A DNA stretch of 36,726 nucleotides from a virus: IMG/VR virus record IMGVR_UViG_3300045988_058662. One strand, given 5' to 3'. Each line of letters starts with the position of its first letter. Within the stretch, counting starts at the first letter, position 1. Under the pieces are notes generated by a model, which saw only the letters and a list, made by a program, of their open reading frames with translations, had not been told where the DNA came from and did no database searches. Shown one piece after another: positions 5,542 to 36,726 of this stretch. Made by a program: the position numbers and the translations under genes.

Positions 5542-6939
5542 TTATAGGATTAGATTATACGAACCGTCTGTATTTGGTGTAGCATTGTAAGGTGTATCGG
5601 AGGGTATTACAAAAGCGGGGACAACGCCATCGCTATTATCAGAAGAGCTGCCATAAACTGTAATACCACCCAAATAATCAACATATTTCACACCGCCATG
5701 GTAGCCGGAAGTATATCCCCCAGTGGAATATTGTGACGATAACCACCATTCCTCTCCATAACCATTTTTCGTTCGTATTCTGCTTGCATCGTTTTTGTAT
5801 AATTGCAAACCTACTCCTTCCCATGCAACTTTACCTTCATAGGTTCGATTCTCTCTTCCGCTCATCATAGTCAGCGTTGGAACAAACATCTTACGAGTGA
5901 TACTCTCAGCACCGGCGAGCGCGAACGTTACATCCATCATTTTATTACGGAGTTTCTGAGGCATTCTATTGTAAATAGTTGTTTTTACCAAATTGTCCAA
6001 AGTACTGTTGGCGTAAAAAGAATACTCACCAAATTTCGAACTGGAATAAATGTTTTTTCTCACCAGCACCACACCGCCGCTCACAAGATTATCCTTGTCC
6101 GCTATCTCATAGTTAGGTGTACCCGCTCCACCGTCCGTACCTACATTTATCAACGTCCCCAGCGGCAAATCGGATATGGGCGCACCGCCGCCCCTTGTCA
6201 TCATCATTCTGCGGCGCAAAGCCCATTCTTTAGATATAACCCCACCAGGAAGTATCTCTATTTTGCTATCAGGGTATGGTTCTGTCGGTGGTGTAAACGA
6301 TTCCGTCCAGCGAGCTATATCCGATACTCTAAACTCATCTATATAGCCAATATACGGATAACCTGTTGTCATTAAATCGCTCGCCCAGTTACCTATACCC
6401 CATGGCCTATCCGCTGAATAACCAATCCTATTAGTGCCAATATTATATGTGTGTTCCAACAAGCCATTCTTGAAAAACATCAGGCTACTGCCGGAACGCA
6501 CAACTGCTCTGTGCGTCCACGTATTAACTATGTTATTTCCGACTGCTTGACCTGCAAGTACATTCCAATCGCTTGTAGCTGCACCACCTGTTTTATTGGA
6601 AAGATACACTTGTAAACCGTTAGCATATACGTGAGTTAGCAAGCCACCCGCCTGTGTGGCATATGATGTGCAATAAACATTAGTAAATCGTGTACCAGCA
6701 TTGGCATTTGTAGGATATTCCCACCAATCTATTGTAAAATCATCGGTGCCAAAATCATATCCGGGTATTGTCAGATATGCCGAACCATCAAAATAAAAAC
6801 TACTATCGCCAAATTTGCTTTGCGCGGTGGAAACCGCAACGCCGGTATTAGTTATAACACGTTTGTCTGTGCTGCCATCAATAAAGCTATTGCCGTGTAG
6901 CAGTAGTTTTGTATGCAAATCACCGGTAACAACTATCAT
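5542..6939 (-). CDS. Tail fibre / receptor-binding protein: N-terminal LamG (concanavalin-like) domain and C-terminal DUF6273-like domain
   Basis: Start trimmed to the ATG at 6939, which overlaps the upstream TGA and has AGGAGG upstream. The N-terminal half (LHGNSFIDGS...FYFDGSAYL...DDFTIDWW) fits the Laminin_G_3 pattern. The C-terminal roughly 210 aa share ITRKMF, WWLSS and GVVPAFVIP with three other genes in the window. Confidence 0.8.
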   Translation of the reverse strand: MIVVTGDLHTKLLLHGNSFIDGSTDKRVITNTGVAVSTAQSKFGDSSFYFDGSAYLTIPGYDFGTDDFTIDWWEYPTNANAGTRFTNVYCTSYATQAGGLLTHVYANGLQVYLSNKTGGAATSDWNVLAGQAVGNNIVNTWTHRAVVRSGSSLMFFKNGLLEHTYNIGTNRIGYSADRPWGIGNWASDLMTTGYPYIGYIDEFRVSDIARWTESFTPPTEPYPDSKIEILPGGVISKEWALRRRMMMTRGGGAPISDLPLGTLINVGTDGGAGTPNYEIADKDNLVSGGVVLVRKNIYSSSKFGEYSFYANSTLDNLVKTTIYNRMPQKLRNKMMDVTFALAGAESITRKMFVPTLTMMSGRENRTYEGKVAWEGVGLQLYKNDASRIRTKNGYGEEWWLSSQYSTGGYTSGYHGGVKYVDYLGGITVYGSSSDNSDGVVPAFVIPSDTPYNATPNTDGSYNLIL

Positions 6940-9344
6940 GCACTTACAACCTCCTGCACTGCCCACACACCATCAAACACATCAAATTCATACGCTTTAG
7001 ATGCTTCAATGGTAGGGGCCGAGCCCATAAATGTGCCACTAAATGACACTGATACGCTGCTTCCCGTAGAAAACATGCCGTGCGCCCAGCCGGAGGCGGG
7101 CGGGGTAAACACGTATGTACCCACAGGAGAGGATACGTTATATATGGTGTTTGCCGTCAGCGCCGCGCCGCTGGCGGGGAGGGAGGAAGCTATAACAGGC
7201 GGGGTCAGGTAGTCCACACCGCCCGCGGCCTGCGCCACTTTGCCGCCTGCGCCTTTGAGCAGGCCGTTAATGTTGGTCGCGGTGTCGGCGGTTATCTCGT
7301 TAGGGCCAGCGGGGCCCTGTTCGCCCTGTGCGCCCGTATCGCCCTTCGCCCCGGTTTCGCCCTGCGGGCCTTTGATGCTGACGCTTGCGGGGTTATCCAG
7401 TCCGCCGTTGTTGCTCCATGAGATTATGCCCTCAGCAGATACCGAGGGGGTAAAGTATGGGCCGGTGTCGCCCTTGTCGCCGGGTTTGCCCTTTGCTCCG
7501 GGGTCGCCCTTGGAGCCTTGTATACCCTGCGGGCCTTGCTCGCCCGTGTCGCCCTTCGCGCCGGGGTCGCCCTTGTCTCCTTTTTCGCCCTGCGGGATTC
7601 CGAACTCAAAATCAAATACCTTTGCGGTGTCCGCGCCGCTTGCCGTTACCTTTACGGTGGCGGCGGTTCCGGCAGTGAGGGTGTTTGCCGTAGCGGTAGG
7701 TGTGCCAAACCCTGCGGCTGTGCCGGGGTCGCCCTTTGCGCCGGGGGTTCCCTGCGGGCCGGGGTCACCCTTGGGGCCTTGCTCGCCTTGTATGCCCTGC
7801 AAGCCCTGTATGCCCTGTTCGCCCTGCTCTCCTGCGGGGCCTTGCTCACCTGCGGGGCCGCGCTCGCCCTGCGGGCCTTTGATGTTGACGGGGTCGGGGT
7901 TGGCGAGGTCGCCGTTGTTTGTCCAGCTCAGCACGCCCTCGGCGGATACCGCCGGTGTGTAGTACGGACCGGTGTCGCCCTTGGCTCCGGCTGCGCCGGG
8001 GTCGCCTTTTGCGCCCTGCTCTCCCTGTATGCCCTGCTCACCCTGTATACCCTGCAAGCCCTGTGGGCCTTCGGGGCCTTGGATGCCTTGTTCGCCCTGT
8101 ATGCCCTGTTCACCCTGCGGGCCTCTGATGTTGGTTTCAGGGGGATTGTTCAGGCCGCCGTTGTTGCTCCACGATATAACGCCCTCGGCGGATACCGAGG
8201 GGGTAAAGTACGGGCCGGTGTCGCCCTTAGCTCCGGCTGCGCCGGGGTCGCCCTTTGCGCCGGGGTCGCCCTTGGGGCCGGGGTCGCCTTTAGGGCCAGT
8301 GGGGCCTTGCTCACCTTTTGCGCCCTGCAAGGGGCCGTTGTTCACCCACTTGGAATTTACACCGTCCCAGATATATATATCATACGGTTCGCCCGCGCCC
8401 ACGCCGTAAGCGTCACCAGCGGAGGGGTTAGATACTCCGGCTTGTAATGCGGAGAGGGAAGCGTAATAGCCCAACACGGCAAATCCTTCGCCCGTATCGC
8501 CCTTGGCTCCCTGTGCGCCCTGTGGCCCCCGTATATTGACTGTGGCGGGGTTATCCAGCCCACCGTCATTACTCCACGATAAATCGCCGTCAGCGGTCAC
8601 AGAGGGCGTATAGTGCGCTCCTGCGGGGCCTCGTTCGCCCGTGGCTCCCGTATCCCCCTTGGGGCCCGTTCCTCCCTTGTCTCCGGGGTCGCCTTTAGGC
8701 CCTTGGATACCCTGTTCACCTTTGGGGCCAGTGGGGCCCGTTTCTCCTGCGGCTCCTGTGTCGCCTTTATCGCCTTTCTTGCCTTCGGGGCCTTGGGGGC
8801 CGACGGGGCCGGGAGTGCCGTCCTGCCACGCCGAGCCGCTTGCGGTTCGAGTGAGTACCTGCCCCGGCGTTCCGCCCGCCGGCAATCCCCCGCCGCCGGA
8901 TCCGCCGCCGCTCTGCGCCGCCTCGTTTATGGCCGCTACAAGGGTATTCTTGTCCGCGGTGGTTAGCTCGTCCATGTCGCCGATTTTTGCAAGGAGTTGT
9001 TCGTATTGCGTCAGGGATATATCCGGCAGTTCGCCTTCCGTGGCCCCGAAGGGCAGCACGTCAAACTGCACCGGGCCAGCCGTTACGCGGCTGTCGCCCT
9101 TTATGCCGGAGAGCTTCAGCTCCCAGCGCCCCGCAGTAAGGTTCACGCCTTGCGCCGCGGTGATTTCGCCGTCCGTCAGCTCTGCGGTTATGGCTTTATT
9201 TCCGCAGACAAAATAGGCAGTGATAGCACGGCCTGCCCAGTCAGGATCAAACGTAAATTTAGCAGTCAGATAGTTTATGCTGTCCGCCACCACAAGCGGT
9301 GTACGCAGCATGAGCCTCTGCCCGCGTATAATGCCTGTAAGCAT
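6936..9344 (-). CDS. Collagen-like tail fibre / baseplate upper protein (BppU-like N-terminus)
   Basis: 802 aa. Long Gly-X-Y tracts ([16 protein letters not shown]...) are interrupted by four copies of the module Y[FY]TP[SA]VSAEG.(I/L)SW.NNG.L.NP. The globular N-terminus resembles BppU_N (from memory). Confidence 0.9.
7302..8816 (-). repeat. Collagen triplet tracts plus four roughly 90-nt module repeats
   Basis: Gly-X-Y coding periodicity is visible throughout. The modules lie at 8526..8615, 8121..8210, 7875..7964 and 7368..7457. Their DNA shares blocks such as TCCA(C/T)GA...GCGGATACCGAGGGGGTAAAGTA. Confidence 0.85.
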
Positions 9345-9585: not shown

Positions 9586-10634
9586 ACAAACACCACCTTT
9601 TTTGCCTGATGCTCCATGAGGGCGCCAGGGCGTATCTCTATTTTCCAGTCGGTTTCCTCGTATACGCCCACCAGTTCCCCGTTATACAGCGCGATAACGT
9701 CTCCCACGCCGTGGGCAGGGTTTATGGCCGTGTAAAATTTGATTTTTTGTGTGGCAAACATGGATTTTATGGCGAGATTATCGGCATACTGTTGCAGTGC
9801 CGCTTGGCTCGCTATGTTGTCCAGTTCAACTGGCGTCGCCAATATGCGCCGCCCCCTGCGTACCGTGGACAAAGCGGAGATCATGCTGTCATTTATGCCC
9901 GTTGCGGTCATGGGGTTGTCATAGTCAGGGTTAGATACGTTGACGATGAAAACGTTGGGGGCCTCATATATGTCCATTTCCTCTGTGTATTCCGGGGCGA
10001 TAATACTATATTCGTCGTCCCGATACTCCCGGTCTATGTTGGAGCTGGACGGAGCCTCGTACCTTTCAAGGCGGGCTACCCCATCAAAATCAAACCAAAT
10101 ATCCGAAAAGTTTATTTCGGACAGCAGTGCATTGATGATGGTGAGATATTCCGTTCCTATTTCCCAATCCTCACGGTCTGTGGCAAGAGTGTCCTCGCAA
10201 TCGTCCATCCGTATGCGCGGTATTCCGGCGTCCCGGATAAGGCCCTGTATCGCGGTCATGTATGGCGTCCCCGCCGCAATATAATACCGGGTCTCGGTTT
10301 TGGTCTGTTTGAGCCTCAGTGCCCGATCGTATGCCTCTATGGTGTCCTCGTCCTTGCCGTATTTAGTGTGTTTGGTGGTCAGCGTGCCCACCATGTATAT
10401 GCCGAGAGGATACTCTATGCCGTCCTTGATGTAATACGGCCTTATTTCATCGTTTAGATAATCCACATTGTCGTTATGCTCGAACACGCCGTACATGGAG
10501 GTCTTTATTTCTCCGTCGGCAGCCATGGTGACGGTGGGATAGTCATCTCCCACCGCCGTCAGATTGTGCTCTGTAACAGCCCCGTTGCGTATCACCTCAA
10601 AGCGGCTGGCTACTACGCTCATCGTATCAATCAT
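9582..10634 (-). CDS. Tail-tip / baseplate hub protein (Tal-like)
   Basis: Start trimmed to the ATG at 10634, which overlaps the upstream stop and has GAGAGGA upstream. It is the second gene after the tape measure. The family assignment rests on position and size, not on a motif. Confidence 0.6.
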   Translation of the reverse strand: MIDTMSVVASRFEVIRNGAVTEHNLTAVGDDYPTVTMAADGEIKTSMYGVFEHNDNVDYLNDEIRPYYIKDGIEYPLGIYMVGTLTTKHTKYGKDEDTIEAYDRALRLKQTKTETRYYIAAGTPYMTAIQGLIRDAGIPRIRMDDCEDTLATDREDWEIGTEYLTIINALLSEINFSDIWFDFDGVARLERYEAPSSSNIDREYRDDEYSIIAPEYTEEMDIYEAPNVFIVNVSNPDYDNPMTATGINDSMISALSTVRRGRRILATPVELDNIASQAALQQYADNLAIKSMFATQKIKFYTAINPAHGVGDVIALYNGELVGVYEETDWKIEIRPGALMEHQAKKVVFV

Positions 10635-12390
10635 GCTCGATCCTCTCATTGTTGTCCGTCTGCTGTATGCTGCACGAAAACGCCCTGAAAAACTGGTCTA
10701 CGCTCAGCTCGAAGCCCATCAGCGGGCCGGTGCACAGGCAGCCGTGCTGATCTCTGTATATCACGGTCTTGCCCAGCAGTCCCTCAAAAGCCGCTGCCTG
10801 TGCCGCATCGTTAAAGGCAGCGTTAAAACTGTATATTTTGGTTATTTGCTGCGAGGTCTCAGCCACGGGATACCGCCGCCCGGCGTAAAACTGATACGCT
10901 ACATCCTGATACGCCGACACGCCCAGCGGGCTATTCTGCGCGGTGGAATATTCCAGCCGCAACCATTGCATTTCGCCCAGCGCCGCTATCTCCGGCGCGT
11001 CTACCGAAAGTGTGACCGTGACCTCATTGGACATGGAGTAACTGTCTCCAGCAACGCCGCGCACTTTATATTTGTGCGTCCCTATGGCCATTTGGTCGGA
11101 GTATGTGTGTGCCGTGGTTTTTGCTATTGGTATGTCATCGCGGTAGATATAGTAAGTTTTGTGATCCGTTTCTGTCCACGCAAGGGCCGCTTTTTCGCCG
11201 CCCGCGGCAAAAAGTGTTATTGGCGCGCCGGGGGTGTTGGCAACGGTAAAATCAGCCGTTCCCCAATCGCTCCAAAGGCCATATTCGTTTTGTATCCGCA
11301 CCGAGGCGGTGTGCGCGCCATCATTCAGATATTCTTTAACCTTATACTGCCCGTCAGTGCTGTAAGCGGTGTGCAATACTGCATTGTCGATCTTTATTTG
11401 ATAGGCAAGCTGCCCCTCGCCTGTCCACGTTATCACCGGCCTCGGGCTTGCCGTTGCGGATACCGTCGGTGTGGATGGTTTGCCCTGAGCCGTAAACGAT
11501 ACTTCCGTGCTCCATGCGGATACGGCATCATAAATATTAGTGCAGCGCACACGCCAGTATACGGTTCCCGCAACTAAGGTATTCGGCGGTATGTCGGCGT
11601 ATGTGTTTGCCGTTTCTCCTGTTTGCAGCTCCGTCCATTCTGTATGTGACGCGTCTTTGTATTGCAGTTCGTATTTTTTCTGTGGGATGCTGTTTTCGCT
11701 TTTGTACGTCCACTCGAACCTTACGGTCTCCCAGCTTCCGGCGTATGTGTTCTTTGGTTTTGTCGCCGTTGCGGTTATTTTATCGTTCGGGAGCAGATCC
11801 TTTATGTAGTAGCTGCCATCGGAGTTTTGGGCATCCTCCAGTTGTGTTGATTGGGGGATTACAAAAGCGGGGACAACCCCGTAGAAGTTGGACGGGTAGT
11901 TGGTGAAGGCGGTGCCATCGGTGAGGACGTAGCGCGAGTAGGGGGTACTGCTGCGCGACGAGAGCCACCATTTGGCTGCCGAGCCGTCAAGGGTTTTAAC
12001 CCTGCTGGTGTTGCTCGTGTATAATTGGAGCGCTTTGCCCTCCGCAACTCCGTTGTTATCCCCAAAGCCCACCATAGTATAGGTCAGGGCAAACATTTTG
12101 CGGGTTATGCTGCCGCTGCCTTCGAGCGCGAAGGTGACGTTTAACATTTTCTCGCGCAGCGCTTGCGGGAAACTGTTGAATATCGTATTTTTTATAAGGT
12201 TATCCAGTGTTCCGTTCGGGTATAGGGTCGAGTTTCCAAACTCCGATTCTTCGTATGCATTTTTGTATACCAGCACCGCTCCGCCGGATACGAGGTTATT
12301 TTTATCAGCCACTTCGCATAGCCTGTTTTCTTCGGTGCCTACCGGGATGAGTATTGTTGCCCCGAGCGGCAAATCTGCTAATGTCGCCAT
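10627..12390 (-). CDS. Distal-tail-protein-like protein with an N-terminal DUF6273-like domain and three FN3-like repeats
   Basis: It follows the tape measure gene directly. The N-terminal roughly 205 aa carry ITRKMF, KWWLSS and GVVPAFVIP. The middle has FN3-like repeats (W..V......Y.Y.V.A). The C-terminal roughly 150 aa look like the N-terminal domain of siphovirus tail (Dit) proteins. Confidence 0.75.
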   Translation of the reverse strand: MATLADLPLGATILIPVGTEENRLCEVADKNNLVSGGAVLVYKNAYEESEFGNSTLYPNGTLDNLIKNTIFNSFPQALREKMLNVTFALEGSGSITRKMFALTYTMVGFGDNNGVAEGKALQLYTSNTSRVKTLDGSAAKWWLSSRSSTPYSRYVLTDGTAFTNYPSNFYGVVPAFVIPQSTQLEDAQNSDGSYYIKDLLPNDKITATATKPKNTYAGSWETVRFEWTYKSENSIPQKKYELQYKDASHTEWTELQTGETANTYADIPPNTLVAGTVYWRVRCTNIYDAVSAWSTEVSFTAQGKPSTPTVSATASPRPVITWTGEGQLAYQIKIDNAVLHTAYSTDGQYKVKEYLNDGAHTASVRIQNEYGLWSDWGTADFTVANTPGAPITLFAAGGEKAALAWTETDHKTYYIYRDDIPIAKTTAHTYSDQMAIGTHKYKVRGVAGDSYSMSNEVTVTLSVDAPEIAALGEMQWLRLEYSTAQNSPLGVSAYQDVAYQFYAGRRYPVAETSQQITKIYSFNAAFNDAAQAAAFEGLLGKTVIYRDQHGCLCTGPLMGFELSVDQFFRAFSCSIQQTDNNERIEHD

Positions 12391-29296: not shown

Positions 29297-29749
29297 TTAT
29301 ATCTCCTTTTTCTCCTTTTTGGTCTCGCTGCGCTCTATGGCTATGCCGATAGCGGCGGAGCCGGTGCTCTTTACGGTGGCCTTAACTCCGTCCGTGGTGG
29401 TTATGACCGCTTTATCCACAAATCCGCCGTACACCCGCTCGGCAAGCTGCTGCAATATCTCCCGCGTCTGCTCGTCCACGGCCACACGCTTCTGGTGCGG
29501 GTTGCCTGCAAAAAGCTCCTCGATGACATCCTCTGCCTTTTGTAGGGCCTCAATGCGGTCGCTCTCTCCCCGAAGGGTAGCCTCATGAATGTCACGGACA
29601 CGTCTGGCCTCCTTGCAGTCGCATATGAGGGTAGCTATCCCGTCCTCGTCCGGGTCGTCGATGTTTGGGTGTAGGGCCAAATAGCTCTTGATATTGAGCA
29701 GTTGCCCGCAGTAGCGGCAAACGCCGAATGTCCTTTCAGTTGTTTCCAC
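29297..29749 (-). CDS. Hypothetical Cys-containing protein (150 aa)
   Basis: GTG start with RBS AAAGGAGGA. CRYCG...CDCKE pairs. Confidence 0.6.
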   Translation of the reverse strand: METTERTFGVCRYCGQLLNIKSYLALHPNIDDPDEDGIATLICDCKEARRVRDIHEATLRGESDRIEALQKAEDVIEELFAGNPHQKRVAVDEQTREILQQLAERVYGGFVDKAVITTTDGVKATVKSTGSAAIGIAIERSETKKEKKEI

Positions 29750-29782
29750 TTTTTTGTCCTCCTTTGATATGTTTTTAGCAGT

Positions 29783-30437
29783 CTTTTTACGAGCAATAGC
29801 TTTCCATCTCCGTCAATCTGTAGCTGCCGTCATTATCCGGTATGTCGTCAATCTGTACCGATTGAGGGATTAAAAAAGTGGGGACAACACCAAACGTGAA
29901 AGACGAGTCGAAGTCGTCGGCGGAGCCGTCCATGTAGACGACCCAAGCGTCGCCAGAGGAGTACCGCGAGGAAAGCCACCAGAGAGCAGCCACGCCGTTG
30001 AGGGTCTTTATTCGGCTATTCCTTCCCGTGAATATAGGCCATGCGAAACCTTCGTCCACTCCGTGGTTGTCGCCGCAGCCTACCATGGTCATTGTGGGGG
30101 CAAACACTTTACGAGTTATATCCTCGGCGCCGCTGCCGTTATATAGCAGGATCGTGCTGGGGATAATCAGCTCCTTAAGCTCGTCGGGGTAGCTGTCGTA
30201 TATTTCGGTCATGCGTTTGTCCAGGTCGGAATCGGCGTACTCCGTGCTGTCGCCAAACCAGCACCGGCTGTGTATGTCTTTGCGGATAAGCCCTACGGTG
30301 CCTACGTCAAAATTATTGAGGCAACCGAGGGTGTAGTCAGCCAGCTCGTAGGTTCCATCCTCGCGGCGCTCGGGGATTTTGATGTTGGTTCCGAATGGTA
30401 GTTCTCCTAATTTCATTTTTTATGTCCTCCCTATGAT
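29783..30437 (-). repeat. Direct repeat A (about 655 bp), covering paralog A and its RBS
   Basis: Aligned by eye to 31465..32114. Both ends are near-identical (CTTTTTACGAGCAATAGCTTTCCA...TTCTCCTAATTTCATTTTT). One region is divergent. Confidence 0.85.
29787..30416 (-). CDS. Stand-alone DUF6273-like protein, paralog A (209 aa)
   Basis: ITRKVFAPTMTMVGCG, LWWLSS and GVVPTFLIPQSVQIDD...DGSYRL. No signal peptide. Homologous to domains in both tail genes. Confidence 0.8.
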   Translation of the reverse strand: MKLGELPFGTNIKIPERREDGTYELADYTLGCLNNFDVGTVGLIRKDIHSRCWFGDSTEYADSDLDKRMTEIYDSYPDELKELIIPSTILLYNGSGAEDITRKVFAPTMTMVGCGDNHGVDEGFAWPIFTGRNSRIKTLNGVAALWWLSSRYSSGDAWVVYMDGSADDFDSSFTFGVVPTFLIPQSVQIDDIPDNDGSYRLTEMESYCS

Positions 30438-30443
30438 ATGTTT

Positions 30444-30836
30444 TTAGCTCATTCGCTCCACTTGTCTGGCGTTGAGCTTGCCGCGCTCGATCAGTTTGTA
30501 TATTTCGTGCCTGTCGATGCCCAGCCGCTTCCTCGTCTCCTGCGTTGTCAGCCACTCGCCGTCCACTTCTACGATCCACTTCCTGTATATACGCGGCGGC
30601 TCGCTTTTCCCGTCCGGCAAAAACAGCGGGCAGGCGCGGATGACGTAGGACTGTATAATTGTCGTGTAGTTTTTGCCGTGGTAATAGTCGCTGCCCTTCA
30701 GCGTTGTCTCCCTTGCCTCCCAGCCCTCAACGGGTTCGGGATCGGCGCGGCGAGACCAGCTGCAGCCCATACCCGGCGCGTTGGTCGCCCTCCGGCAACG
30801 CCAGCACAGAGTTTGTCCGGTTATGCACGCTTCCAT
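30444..30836 (-). CDS. Zn-finger plus C-terminal HTH DNA-binding protein (130 aa)
   Basis: Trimmed to the ATG at 30836 (RBS AAAGGAG). CWRCRR...GCSW...CPLF. The C-terminus LTTQETRKRLGIDRHEIYKLIERGKL is HTH-like. Confidence 0.6.
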   Translation of the reverse strand: MEACITGQTLCWRCRRATNAPGMGCSWSRRADPEPVEGWEARETTLKGSDYYHGKNYTTIIQSYVIRACPLFLPDGKSEPPRIYRKWIVEVDGEWLTTQETRKRLGIDRHEIYKLIERGKLNARQVERMS

Positions 30837-30838
30837 AT

Positions 30839-30928
30839 CTATCTCCTTTTGCGGGGTGCGAAGGCGTATCCCGCCATGCACCCGATGAAAAACATCGGTA
30901 TCCCCCAGCTGAAAAATGCTCCCCACAT
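30839..30928 (-). CDS. Possible 29-aa hydrophobic peptide
   Basis: ATG with RBS GGGAGGG 7 nt upstream. Sequence is MWGAFFSWGIPMFFIGCMAGYAFAPRKRR. It ends 2 nt before the next ATG. Confidence 0.3.
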   Translation of the reverse strand: MWGAFFSWGIPMFFIGCMAGYAFAPRKRR

Positions 30929-30929
30929 A

Positions 30930-31151
30930 TCAATCCCTCCCTGTCGCAATGTGTAAGTTAATGTTTTGATTGTTGGCGTCAACGCATATCAACGTTGCGT
31001 CCATGAGTTTGCCTACATTTTGGGCGCACATTTTAGGCAGTATTTCTTCGCGGTTATAGCTGCCCAGCAGTTCCCCGCCTGGGGCATGGTAGAGTTTTAC
31101 CCGCTGGCTCTTGAGCAGCGCCAGCATGGGGAGGATATCCTTTACTTGCAT
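30930..31151 (-). CDS. Hypothetical protein (73 aa)
   Basis: The ORF overlaps the 3' end of the HNH gene by 10 nt. Confidence 0.5.
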   Translation of the reverse strand: MQVKDILPMLALLKSQRVKLYHAPGGELLGSYNREEILPKMCAQNVGKLMDATLICVDANNQNINLHIATGRD

Positions 31152-31462
31152 ATGTAATCACTCCTCCACTTGCGGTATCTCAGCTTTTCCTCGTCCCAGT
31201 CCGGGTATTTGGCCATAAGGTAGGCGCGAAGGGCCTTTTTCAGTTCCGGCCTGCGCTCGGAATTGTCGTAATCCCTGTGGCACTCAGGGCATAGGGTGAC
31301 GATGTTCTCTTCTATTCCCTTCCCGTTATGGGAGCGAGGGATGAAATGCGCGTCAGGGTTGCCCGGTCTGCCGCACAGGACGCAGCAATGATGATCCCTC
31401 TCCCATACCCACCGTTTGACTTTGAGAGGTATGTCGCATGCTTTTGTGCGCTTGCTTTTCAT
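31142..31462 (-). CDS. HNH endonuclease (second in the window)
   Basis: CVLCGRPGNPDAHFIPRSHNGKGIEENIVTLCPECH. Confidence 0.85.
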   Translation of the reverse strand: MKSKRTKACDIPLKVKRWVWERDHHCCVLCGRPGNPDAHFIPRSHNGKGIEENIVTLCPECHRDYDNSERRPELKKALRAYLMAKYPDWDEEKLRYRKWRSDYICK

Positions 31463-31464
31463 GG

Positions 31465-32114
31465 CTTTTTACGAGCAATAGCTTTCCAGCTCTGTCAATC
31501 TGTAACTGCCGTCATTATCCGGTGTGTCGTCAATCTGTACCGATTGAGGGATTACAAAAGCGGGGACAACACCAAGCGTGAGCGACGAGAGGCCGAAGTA
31601 GTAGGCGGAGCCGCCCGTGCCGACGAACCACACGACGTCAGAGGAGAACTGCGAGGAAAGCCACCAGACATTAGCCGAGCCGTTAAAGGTCTTTTCGCGG
31701 CTATTTCTTCCCGTGAATATAGGCCATGTGAATCCCTCGTCCACTCCTTCATTTTCGCCGCAGCCTACCATGGTCAATGTGGGGGCAAACACTTTTCGGG
31801 TTATATCCTCGGCGCCGCTGCCGTTATATAACGGGATCGTGCTGGGAATAATCAGCTCTTTAAGTTCGTCGGGGTAGCTGTTGTATATTTCCGTCATGCG
31901 TTTGTCCAGGTCTGATCCGGCATACTCCGTGCTATCGCCGAACCGGCACAGGCCGTGTATGTCCTTGCGGATAAACGCAGCTACACCCGCGCCGAAAAAG
32001 CCCAGCGTGTAGTCCGCCAGCTCGTAGGTTCCACCCTCGCGGCGCTCGGGAATTTTGATGTTTGCCCCGAATGTCAGTTCTCCTAATTTCATTTTTTTGC
32101 GTCCTCCTTATGAT
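31465..32114 (-). repeat. Direct repeat B (about 650 bp), covering paralog B and its RBS
   Basis: This is the partner of 29783..30437. Confidence 0.85.
31469..32092 (-). CDS. Stand-alone DUF6273-like protein, paralog B (207 aa)
   Basis: ITRKVFAPTLTMVGCG, VWWLSS and GVVPAFVIPQSVQIDD...DGSYRL. Confidence 0.8.
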   Translation of the reverse strand: MKLGELTFGANIKIPERREGGTYELADYTLGFFGAGVAAFIRKDIHGLCRFGDSTEYAGSDLDKRMTEIYNSYPDELKELIIPSTIPLYNGSGAEDITRKVFAPTLTMVGCGENEGVDEGFTWPIFTGRNSREKTFNGSANVWWLSSQFSSDVVWFVGTGGSAYYFGLSSLTLGVVPAFVIPQSVQIDDTPDNDGSYRLTELESYCS

Positions 32115-32401
32115 TTGATACCCCGGGATCTTGGGCCATCGGCAAAGGCCCTCCTTCCCGGACGCACCGGGCCTGAATCCTGTTTATACTCGCCCGGTCG
32201 AGTTGCTAACGTGCTGTTGTGGGTTCGTTAGGTCATTCGCATCACCTCCGGCGAAAGGAGACAGCAGAGGGCGGTGAGCAGAAGCAGCGTTTTGTCGGAC
32301 ATATCAGGTGGTCTGTGTATATCAAAAAGGAGATTATAAACTCTGCCCATCGGACACCGGCCCAAGATGCCGCCCTCTGCTCTCCCCTTTCGTACGGGGA
32401 G
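32093..32401 (-). other. Non-coding, GC-rich, highly self-complementary segment: candidate structured RNA or leader
   Basis: No RBS-supported ORF. Perfect long-range pairings are 32128-32137 with 32359-32368 (10 bp) and 32263-32274 with 32370-32381 (12 bp). Local hairpins lie at 32133-32151, 32157-32171, 32166-32198 and 32383-32400. Confidence 0.3.
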
Positions 32402-32734
32402 CTACTGCACTTTGTATTTGCAATCGTCGTATTTATGGCGGCGGGCAGCCTTTACCCTGGGCTGCTCTGCCGTCTTGTCCTCTACCATGGAGGCCATGCT
32501 CCGCACCAGTATGAGAGGGGCGTGGCCGTCGGCGGCGGTCGCCATGAGGCGCCCATCCCTACACATGGCGCGTATAGTGCCGGGGTCTACGTTGATGATC
32601 TCGGATGCCCGTTTGGTGGTGACATACTCGCCGTGCATCTTCACCATGCGCTCTTCCAGCGCCTCAACACTGTTTATGCGCTCGTCCACGGCGGCGGTTA
32701 TCATGTCCCGCAGCAGCTTGTCAAAGTTATCCAT
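32402..32734 (-). CDS. HTH DNA-binding protein (excisionase/MerR-like)
   Basis: VTTKRASEIINVDPGTIRAMCRDGRL. RBS is GAAAGGAAA. Confidence 0.65.
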   Translation of the reverse strand: MDNFDKLLRDMITAAVDERINSVEALEERMVKMHGEYVTTKRASEIINVDPGTIRAMCRDGRLMATAADGHAPLILVRSMASMVEDKTAEQPRVKAARRHKYDDCKYKVQ

Positions 32735-35533: not shown

Positions 35534-36646
35534 ATGGCAAGGCAAAGCGACGGGCGGTATAGGGCTAAAGTAACCGTCGGCAAGGATATGAATGGCGGCA
35601 GCGTGATAAAATATGTATCCGGGCGCACAAAGAAGGAGCTGGAAGCCGCGAAGGAGGCTATCCGGCAGGAATATATCACCGGCAGGAATACGCCGGAAAA
35701 CGCCATGTTCGGGGCATACGCCATTCAATGGTATAACACATACAAAAAGCCGAATATAGGAGCATCGGCGCAGAGCAGTTATAGGACCGCGCTGAACGTG
35801 CATATACTCCCCATTCTGGGGAACAAGCGATTGACGGCAATATCCGCAATGGACTTGCAGGAGCTTATCAACTCAAAGGCGGATACCTGCGCAACGATAA
35901 TTAAGAATGTACATCATGTTCTGAAAAGTATATTTAAGCGGGCATATATGGAAGGGATAATCCCCCGCGATATAACCGTAGGATTAGAAAAACCGTCCAA
36001 GGCCAAAAAGAGCCGCCGCGCCCTGACAGAGGCGGAAGAGGCCGCCGCGAAGGTGCTGATGCAGGAGGAAAACGGCCTGCTGGTGGCGCTGCTTTATTAT
36101 ACCGGCATGAGGCTCGGCGAAGCCCTCGGCCTGCAATGGGAGTGCGTGGATTTCAAAAAGAAGGTCATACACGTCCGGCAGCAGGTCAATTTAGGGCTGG
36201 GCAAAATCACGCCGCCGAAAACGAAGGAGAGCATAAGGGATATACCCCTGCCTGACGAGCTGGCAGAGATGCTTGTGCGGGGATTCCCACAGGCGTTTGT
36301 TTTTCCGTCTCCGAGTGGATCATATTATAGGAACACACCCGTTAATCGGCTATGGATAGATTTAATGCGGCGTATAATCGAAATAGACCCGACAATTGAG
36401 ACGCGGGGAAACGGCGCCTCTGTCCTCACACCGCACTACTTCCGGCACAATTACGCCTCCATACTCTATAATGCCGGCGTTGACGTGCTTTCCGCGCAGA
36501 AATTTCTCGGCCATGCCAACGCAAAGGTAACGCTTGAAATTTATTCACACCTTTCAAGGGAGAAAGAGGACGCAAGCGCGGAAACCGTCAGAAGCGTTTT
36601 TCAAAAAAGGTTGCCAGAAAGTTGCCAGAGCAAAACCACAAAATGA
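35534..36646 (+). CDS. int: Tyrosine recombinase / phage integrase
   Basis: TGMRLGEALGL (Arg), HYFRHNYAS (H-x-x-R) and LGHANAKVTLEIYSH (catalytic Tyr region). RBS is GGGAGG. The last 19 nt lie inside the terminal repeat. Confidence 0.92.
   Translation: MARQSDGRYRAKVTVGKDMNGGSVIKYVSGRTKKELEAAKEAIRQEYITGRNTPENAMFGAYAIQWYNTYKKPNIGASAQSSYRTALNVHILPILGNKRLTAISAMDLQELINSKADTCATIIKNVHHVLKSIFKRAYMEGIIPRDITVGLEKPSKAKKSRRALTEAEEAAAKVLMQEENGLLVALLYYTGMRLGEALGLQWECVDFKKKVIHVRQQVNLGLGKITPPKTKESIRDIPLPDELAEMLVRGFPQAFVFPSPSGSYYRNTPVNRLWIDLMRRIIEIDPTIETRGNGASVLTPHYFRHNYASILYNAGVDVLSAQKFLGHANAKVTLEIYSHLSREKEDASAETVRSVFQKRLPESCQSKTTK
36605..36628. repeat. Tandem GTTGCCAG pair (AAAAGGTTGCCAGAAAGTTGCCAG), partner of 198..221
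   Basis: It lies inside the integrase 3' end, encoding KRLPESCQ. Confidence 0.85.
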
Positions 36647-36726
36647 GCGCAAGCAATCAAAAAAGCCCTAAATACCTAAGAAAAACGCCCGTGCAACACG
36701 AGCGTTTTTGATGTTTGGTATCCGGC
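36628..36726. repeat. Terminal direct repeat, right copy (identical to 1..99)
   Basis: Checked base by base. Confidence 0.97.

Follow-up and report, generated by a model that had tools for sequence, protein, structure and literature searches.

Diversity-generating retroelements (DGRs) reverse-transcribe the RNA of their template repeat (TR), randomly inserting wrong bases opposite adenines, and the cDNA then replaces a variable repeat (VR). When this mutagenesis acts on AAC codons, it leaves NNC codons as its mark. DUF6273 is a DGR target domain of C-type-lectin fold in phages of gut Clostridia, which carry both large tentaclins and small targets made of DUF6273 only (PMC10743442; PMC11792537). 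One such small target is gp24, the second and remote target of phage FP_Toutatis, and some Toutatisviruses without a DGR keep both of their targets (bioRxiv 10.1101/2024.10.15.618418). The ‘small DGR target’ of phage Lelie is the counterpart of gp24 (PMC11792537). Here we describe two small DUF6273 genes in the early region of the virus record IMGVR_UViG_3300045988_058662, a stretch of 36,726 nucleotides that was analysed as a whole and is called the window below. With a probability of roughly 0.8, we conclude that the two proteins are stand-alone lectin-like DUF6273 binding domains, whose VRs were rewritten by a DGR that this phage no longer carries.

The two small genes and their template repeat

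Copy A (29787..30416, 209 aa) and copy B (31469..32092, 207 aa) are encoded on the minus strand, at the positions given in a first-pass annotation made from the window sequence, and its suggestion that they resemble DUF6273 was correct. In searches with the Pfam profile of this family (PF19789; curated gathering cut-off, 23.5 bits), copy A scored 54.5 bits, copy B 49.5 bits, and two regions in tail genes 49.3 and 35.4 bits, so that all four regions are homologous. The tail regions are the N-terminal domain (11775-12390) of a 587-aa tentaclin-type protein encoded after the tape measure gene (10627..12390, minus strand) and the C-terminal domain (5542-6183) of a 474-aa LamG (Laminin_G_3) protein (5542..6966, minus strand). 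Copies A and B are close paralogs, as had been proposed, with 79% identity in protein and about 88% in DNA, and each is about 40% identical to the two tail copies. Their duplicated DNA comprises exactly the ribosome-binding site, the open reading frame (ORF) and the stop codon. The motif blocks ITRK, T.TM, WWLSS, GVVP.F.IP and DGSY are invariant columns in the alignment of the four regions. A 23-nt DNA block, reported in the first-pass annotation with starts that were slightly off at two sites (11863 and 31547), is real and occurs four times with at most two mismatches, starting at 5603, 11855, 29866 and 31548, where shuffled sequences give an expectation of 0. In copy A it spans 29866..29888 at the 3' edge of the VR, encodes VVPTFLIP, and straddles the end of the TR homology (GTTGTCCCC) and a part found only in the VR; in copy B it spans 31548..31570. 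Synonymous variation in this block is nearly nil across 40 genes from relatives.

The claim that copies A and B differ mainly in two patches was roughly right, as 28 of the 47 differing protein columns fall there (10 in patch 1 and 18 in patch 2). A protein search with the small protein returned 488 distinct clusters at 90% identity, and the members of the top 120 were all about 209 aa long and 75-95% identical, with their variation at discrete columns between WWLSS and GVVP. We retrieved 32 related viral loci and aligned 40 distinct genes by codon. Mean entropy in the 15 VR codons was 1.51 bits at the first position, 1.18 bits at the second and 0.24 bits at the third, compared with 0.23, 0.14 and 0.49 bits at the remaining codons. 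At the nine codons that vary at both positions 1 and 2, C was counted in 56/360 cases at position 1 and in 3/360 at position 2. A deficit of second-position A-to-C changes at the AAC codons of DGR-diversified DUF6273 targets has been described before (Baykov et al., 2023, PMC10743442). By these patterns patch 2, between WWLSS and GVVP, is a DGR variable repeat in both copies, which the first-pass annotation had missed. Patch 1 is a two-allele polymorphism (17 vs. 23 of the 40 genes) lacking the NNC pattern, and ordinary diversifying selection and recombination are its likely explanation.

We predicted a TR by writing A at each variable site and scanned the resulting 27-nt sequence, as an exact pattern, through 2.9 million viral contigs, 241 million metagenome records and 185,579 representative genomes. 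It had exactly one metagenome match, in contig L145 (2182 nt). This contig, read on its minus strand, holds in coding-strand order the end of a collagen-like fibre gene, a 77-aa ORF, an Avd-like ORF, the TR, a truncated reverse transcriptase (RT) gene and a DUF6273 target gene. The RT is about 140 aa long, with its first 32 residues joined to the thumb region and the palm domain deleted, and the Avd-like gene and TR are intact. The TR (AACTGGTGGCTTTCCTCGCAGAAC...GGTGTTGTCCCCG) has the sequence AAC TGG TGG CTT TCC TCG CAG AAC TCC TCT GAC AAC GCG TGG AAC GTC AAC ACG GAC GGC TCC GCC AAC AAC AAC AAC CCC TCG AAC TCG AAC GGT GTT GTC CCC G. Compared with it, the VR of copy B (31561..31669, minus strand) is mismatched at 21/26 adenines and 4/80 other bases (Fisher p = 8e-14), and the VR of copy A (29879..29984, minus strand) at 18/26 adenines and 8/80 other bases (Fisher p = 1e-8). 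The equivalent stretch of the window tentaclin (11868-11973) is mismatched at 12/26 adenines and 21/80 others (Fisher p = 0.09) and has drifted, and that of the LamG protein (5616-5751) is longer, cannot be aligned to the TR and is not DGR-like. In relatives L112, L114, L119, L120 and L124 the tentaclin VR is clean relative to the L145 TR (17-18/26 adenines, 2-4/80 others). Across the relatives, tentaclin VRs and the fibre-adjacent target of L119 fit this TR with 12-18/26 vs. 2-7/80 mismatches. Since the VRs of several target classes fit it, this one TR would have served up to four classes in the phage family, namely the tentaclin, the fibre-adjacent target and the two early slots.

Other sources of the template were tried and rejected. 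Copies A and B cannot be each other's TR, as their mismatches carry no adenine bias in either direction, and the tail copies do not qualify as coding TRs, as the tentaclin VR-equivalent is not adenine-rich. A Toutatis-type TR, distinct from the cognate one and the only TR found when IMG/VR was scanned, is present on 56 viral contigs, but its differences from the window VRs include non-adenine bases and the 3' end. A first guess at the TR gave chance matches only in IMG/VR. The intact DGR of relatives L138 and L110 has a TR of unrelated sequence that serves only the adjacent 328-aa target.

At the 3' border of the VR, TR homology stops at GTTGTCCCCG and is followed by a conserved part found only in the VR, CTTTTGTAATCCC, and then by a 6-bp inverted repeat, TCAATC/GATTGA. 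That repeat is held by six codons 3' of the VR (CAA TCG GTA CAG ATT GAC; 29847-29864 in copy A, 31529-31546 in copy B), which are nearly invariant even at third positions, with five of the six fully invariant in the 40 genes.

The small DUF6273 proteins are predicted to adopt a C-type-lectin-like fold. With a shallow alignment the model of copy A reached a predicted local distance difference test score (pLDDT) of 35, and adding two further DUF6273 clades raised it to 74; the AlphaFold2 model used here has a pLDDT of 74.4 and a predicted TM-score of 0.78. Foldseek placed it closest to PDB entry 9qa6, which contains a DUF6273 domain (probability 1.0, TMq 0.66, 9% sequence identity), then to 8q4e, the C-terminal C-type-lectin-like domain of Legionella Lcl (probability 0.92), and then to weakly matching C-type lectins. 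Sequence-profile searches of the PDB with the small protein gave nothing meaningful. In BFVD, 25 matches had E <= 1e-3, mostly DUF6273 phage proteins, both stand-alone and fused. The VR of the copy A model forms a beta-hairpin (residues 156-170) of moderate confidence (pLDDT 53-72).

An AGGAGG ribosome-binding site precedes each small gene, and all relatives have an intact ORF. Outside the VR, most of the variation is at third codon positions, which indicates purifying selection there. Because of these strong ribosome-binding sites and the third-position bias, copies A and B are best read as expressed protein genes, not as the silent cassettes suggested in the first-pass annotation. A cytoplasmic location of the proteins would follow from the missing N-terminal hydrophobic segment.

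Probable loss of the retroelement and movement of its alleles

The first 99 bases of the window are repeated exactly as its last 99 (1-99 = 36628-36726, a terminal direct repeat), which makes it either a complete circular genome, with a length of about 36.6 kb (about 36,627 bp), or a terminally redundant one. Within it, tblastn with the RT and Avd proteins of Toutatis, L138 and L145 gave no match below E = 0.05, an RT motif scan was empty, and repeat and blastn searches for a TR-like or adenine-rich copy of the VR returned the four known copies only. The complete DGR system of RT, Avd and TR is absent from this genome, and since the genome is complete its VRs are orphans.

We examined the DGR state of 44 tail-region loci from relatives. 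Only L110 and L138 have an intact RT; in each, intact Avd, TR and 374-aa RT genes follow the collagen-like fibre gene (L138 15825-17752; L110 about 8075-9046), and their TR reads WWLASPNTNNNNNF... In the window the LamG gene occupies the site that holds the Avd-TR-RT cassette in L145, L138 and L110, so the fibre-distal locus is a swap site for DGR cassettes or a LamG-DUF6273 gene. L119 keeps the neighbours found in L145, with Avd, TR and RT cleanly deleted, and IMG/VR contains no relative of the L145 Avd. The cognate DGR thus appears to have been lost from essentially all sampled members of the family, which would leave the window VRs orphaned.

The early locus has a fixed order in about 25 relatives (HTH110, slot 1, HNH, 73-aa ORF, HTH160, slot 2, p150), and either slot can be filled or empty depending on the relative. 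In the window, copy B fills slot 1 and copy A slot 2. Among the 40 genes there are 24 VR alleles. The same allele can be present in backbones that are only 84-93% identical and in different slots; the VR of L008 slot 1, for example, is 100% identical to that of L020 slot 2, while their N-terminal parts are 84% identical. Conversely, no pair of near-identical backbones (>=98%) had different VRs among the 40 genes. With the same VRs in divergent backbones and no differing VRs in near-identical ones, the alleles look like standing variation moved by recombination, including between the early slots, and not like products of recent retrohoming. On either side of copy A lies a direct repeat with a length of about 30 nt. 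One copy is in the ribosome-binding-site region upstream of copy A (30417..30448, minus strand; GCTAAAAACATATCATAGGGAGGACATAAAAA), and the other (29750..29779, minus strand) stands between copy A and the next gene downstream (29297-29749). Together with the empty slots in relatives, this suggests that recombination between repeats of this kind adds or removes DUF6273 cassettes.

Taken together, these observations can be assembled into the following sequence of events. Copies A and B would be two independent, adenine-mutagenised versions of one TR, and as such should differ in binding specificity. Homology to the Mtd-like targets and to tentaclins suggests that the hairpin of the VR is the ligand-binding surface. 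In L145 the cognate TR lies in an Avd-TR-RT cassette beside the tail-fibre genes, and the RT there is already deleted internally. After the cassette was lost, the window VRs would have remained as orphaned, frozen alleles, and the variation among relatives would now be spread by homologous recombination, including between early slots.

Several points weigh against this account. The cognate TR was seen once only, in a low-coverage 2.2-kb contig with a defective RT, and pattern scans of IMG/VR and of the GTDB representative genomes found no intact DGR with this TR. Neither tail copy in the window gives a clean VR signature. The hairpin predicted after the VR has an energy no better than shuffled sequence (z ~0), and the usual DGR cis elements, the initiation of mutagenic homing (IMH) site and hairpin, are not demonstrated.

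An unlikely alternative is that the VRs are still diversified in trans by a DGR of the host chromosome or of a co-resident prophage that has a compatible TR, with the 23-nt block as the homing signal. Targets remote from their TR are known, such as Toutatis gp24 at about 17.5 kb, the 3' block is kept at the nucleotide level in all four copies, the window VRs differ from the L145 TR at just 4-8 of 80 non-adenine bases, and the 488 clusters attest to the diversity of the small protein. No intact DGR with this TR turned up, however, in the exact-pattern scans of viral, metagenome and representative-genome sequences. Active retrohoming would also give the opposite of the allele distribution seen in the 40 genes (a small sample), in which identical VRs sit in 84-93% backbones and none differ in pairs of at least 98%.

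We also considered what the small proteins might do other than adsorb. A 2026 preprint reports that a DUF6273 tentaclin is expressed in lysogens and present in vesicles, and because of this, roles beyond adsorption are plausible for the small proteins. In a reading that we regard as quite improbable, the small proteins would not be virion parts but hypervariable binders, expressed early, whose site of action is the interior of the infected cell or the inner side of its envelope, where they might for instance neutralise variable proteins of host defence or variable receptors. The slots would hold a two-allele repertoire, maintained and reshuffled by recombination after the loss of the retroelement or refreshed in trans by the DGR of another element. 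We leave it open because the early position recurs in three unrelated backbones (the window family, Toutatisvirus and L143/L144) and because the proteins have no attachment domain. The decoy or receptor-modifying and non-structural roles put forward in the first-pass annotation are neither supported nor excluded.

The same annotation had raised the idea that the early copies are silent donors that recombine into the tail genes and so switch host range, which is now very hard to sustain. The 23-nt block and the conserved DNA around it could support homologous exchange, and VR alleles do pass between the two early slots, as in L008 and L020. But the genes are not silent, given their AGGAGG sites, intact ORFs and third-position variation outside the VR. 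Exchange between early and tail copies in related phages, which that idea predicts, left no sign; among about 100 VRs from relatives no allele is common to a small gene and a tail copy, and the best match between small-gene and tentaclin or fibre VRs is 84-88%, never above 88%, the level expected between VRs made from a common TR alone.

Finally, although the genome has no RT and patch 1 is a plain two-allele polymorphism without the NNC signature, an account of patch 2 that dispenses with the retroelement, and invokes just ordinary diversifying selection and recombination acting on a receptor-binding loop, is scarcely credible. It is refuted by the TR match and would leave unexplained how third positions stay invariant while positions 1 and 2 approach 2 bits, why second-position C is nearly absent and why a TR predicted by setting positions to A was found.

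Setting in the phage genome

The window is the genome of a temperate phage of siphovirus type with a Bacillota host. Nearly all of its genes are on the minus strand. A lysogeny module of integrase, TM2/SHOCT protein and CI-like repressor lies on the plus strand at 34.3-36.6 kb, and the leftward early region encodes a Cro-like regulator, HTH_17 proteins, an HNH endonuclease, a DNA methyltransferase, two replication-initiation proteins, a VRR-NUC nuclease and an NTP pyrophosphohydrolase. The placement of the stand-alone domains among early genes in the first-pass annotation agrees with these neighbours. The segment between the copies (30444..31462, minus strand) encodes a 160-aa HTH_17 protein (30444-30926), a 73-aa ORF (30930-31151) and an HNH endonuclease (31142-31462). 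The head and packaging genes comprise the small and large terminases (TerL being the latter), portal, protease, major head protein and connectors; the tail genes a major tail protein, tape measure, the 587-aa protein, a 355-aa tail protein, an 802-aa collagen-like fibre and the 474-aa LamG protein; and the lysis genes a holin and an NlpC/P60 lysin. A scan for promoters and terminators gave nothing above shuffled expectation.

The 587-aa protein had been called Dit-like, a label that rests on its position after the tape measure; it has no Dit- or Sipho_tail-type match in Pfam or PHROG. It matches PF19789 at residues 50-179, Ig_Rha78A_N at 221-300 and, more weakly, Ig_J, and it has Hoc-like and virion-protein matches in PHROG. 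This domain content is the tentaclin architecture of DUF6273 plus Ig-like domains. The 802-aa tail fibre (6936-9344, minus strand) contains long collagen-like Gly-X-Y arrays with 9/18-nt periodicity, and the length of this fibre differs between relatives, from 571 to 802 aa.

The closest TerL among deposited phages has 57% identity and belongs to Paenibacillus phages, and megablast of the early region against deposited phages gave no match. Two scans of GTDB representative genomes found neither a prophage nor a TR.

A Pistol self-cleaving ribozyme (RF02679; 32116..32203, minus strand; 56.7 bits with a gathering threshold of 34.5, E = 6.5e-8) is located upstream of copy B, 24 nt from the start codon. 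If the RNA is cut close to the 3' end of the ribozyme, the ribosome-binding site and the ORF would presumably end up together on an RNA of their own that has a new 5' end. The position of the ribozyme is kept in relatives whether slot 1 is filled or empty, and where the slot is empty (L013, L021, L030) it precedes the HNH gene. Twister-P5 ribozymes (RF02684, 65 bits) were found in L017 (13175-13227, minus strand) and L026 (14901-14953, minus strand), so self-cleaving ribozymes of more than one class occur in this phage group. Between the Pistol ribozyme and an HTH gene (32402-32734) is a gap of 310 nt with a 23-nt inverted repeat (32252-32274 / 32370-32392) that is 91% complementary, with arms 95 nt apart. 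In L143/L144, a 49-kb circular contig, a 276-aa DUF6273 gene stands in the early region with an HNH gene and a 74-aa ORF; the replication module is different (Sipho_Gp157, SSB, DnaB), and no Pistol ribozyme was detected.

Comparison with known systems

The nearest counterpart of the window copies is gp24 of FP_Toutatis (YP_009797461, 215 aa), which lies among early genes between methyltransferases and a replication initiator, and whose VR differs from the Toutatis TR at adenines only. Targets of the gp24 type consist of a DUF6273 domain alone, are about 200-300 aa long, have their VR at the C-terminal end and are encoded elsewhere than in the DGR cassette; copies A and B have all of these features. 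They share with gp24 itself a length of about 210 aa, a VR close to the C-terminus followed by a short tail, and a place among early genes such as those for methyltransferases and a replication initiator, well away from the tail module. The similarity between gp24 and copy A is, however, local and weak (E = 8e-6) and restricted to the VR region, and the two proteins belong to different subfamilies. Toutatis carries a single copy together with a myovirus structural module and an Avd-TR-RT of its own, whereas the window has two copies in two independently filled slots, a siphovirus-type module and a genome without a DGR.

In the small myoviruses that carry nd4_tgt2 and nd12_tgt2, one TR serves a large target (569-579 aa, with an N-terminal DUF6273 and Ig-like domains) and a small DUF6273-only target (PMC10743442). 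The same study gives tentaclins an Ig-like anchoring domain at the C-terminus that has a seven-residue consensus. Their tentaclin VR is a beta-hairpin on a C-type-lectin-like domain, a likeness with our copy A model, and they share with the window relatives the deficit of second-position A-to-C changes. Both nd4/nd12 targets lie in one RT-bearing DGR cassette; in the window, by contrast, the small targets are duplicated and in the early region, and the cassette is missing.

Mtd of Bordetella phage BPP-1, diversified by bRT-Avd-TR, is alike in mechanism, with adenine-specific mutagenic retrohoming and a VR at the C-terminal end of a C-type-lectin-fold domain. It is nevertheless a trimeric protein of the tail-fibre tip with extra N-terminal domains, encoded beside its own DGR. 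It has no detectable sequence similarity to the window copies, a PDB profile search was empty, and cis elements of the IMH type are not demonstrated in the window. The best structural match to the copy A model is the N-terminal domain in the IgA peptidase of Thomasclavelia ramosa (9qa6; PMC12402451), which is annotated as DUF6273 but belongs to a secreted, multidomain bacterial protease and is neither a phage protein nor a DGR target.

These comparisons bear on how DGR targets are found. Paralogues that differ in discrete patches can be the footprint of a vanished retroelement, and genome scans for DGRs that require an RT will miss such orphan targets. The window family offers a natural series for studying how the diversity made by a DGR outlasts the DGR itself. 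What the small DUF6273 targets of early regions do is a question that it has in common with the Faecalibacterium phages in which they were first noted.

Small DUF6273 targets in early regions, and phages that keep their targets without a DGR, were thus already known. What the window adds is a different phage backbone and protein subfamily, with two paralogous early copies in independently occupied slots. In addition, the DGR is lost completely, its cognate TR being preserved only in a decayed cassette on another contig, and there is evidence that VR alleles pass from slot to slot.

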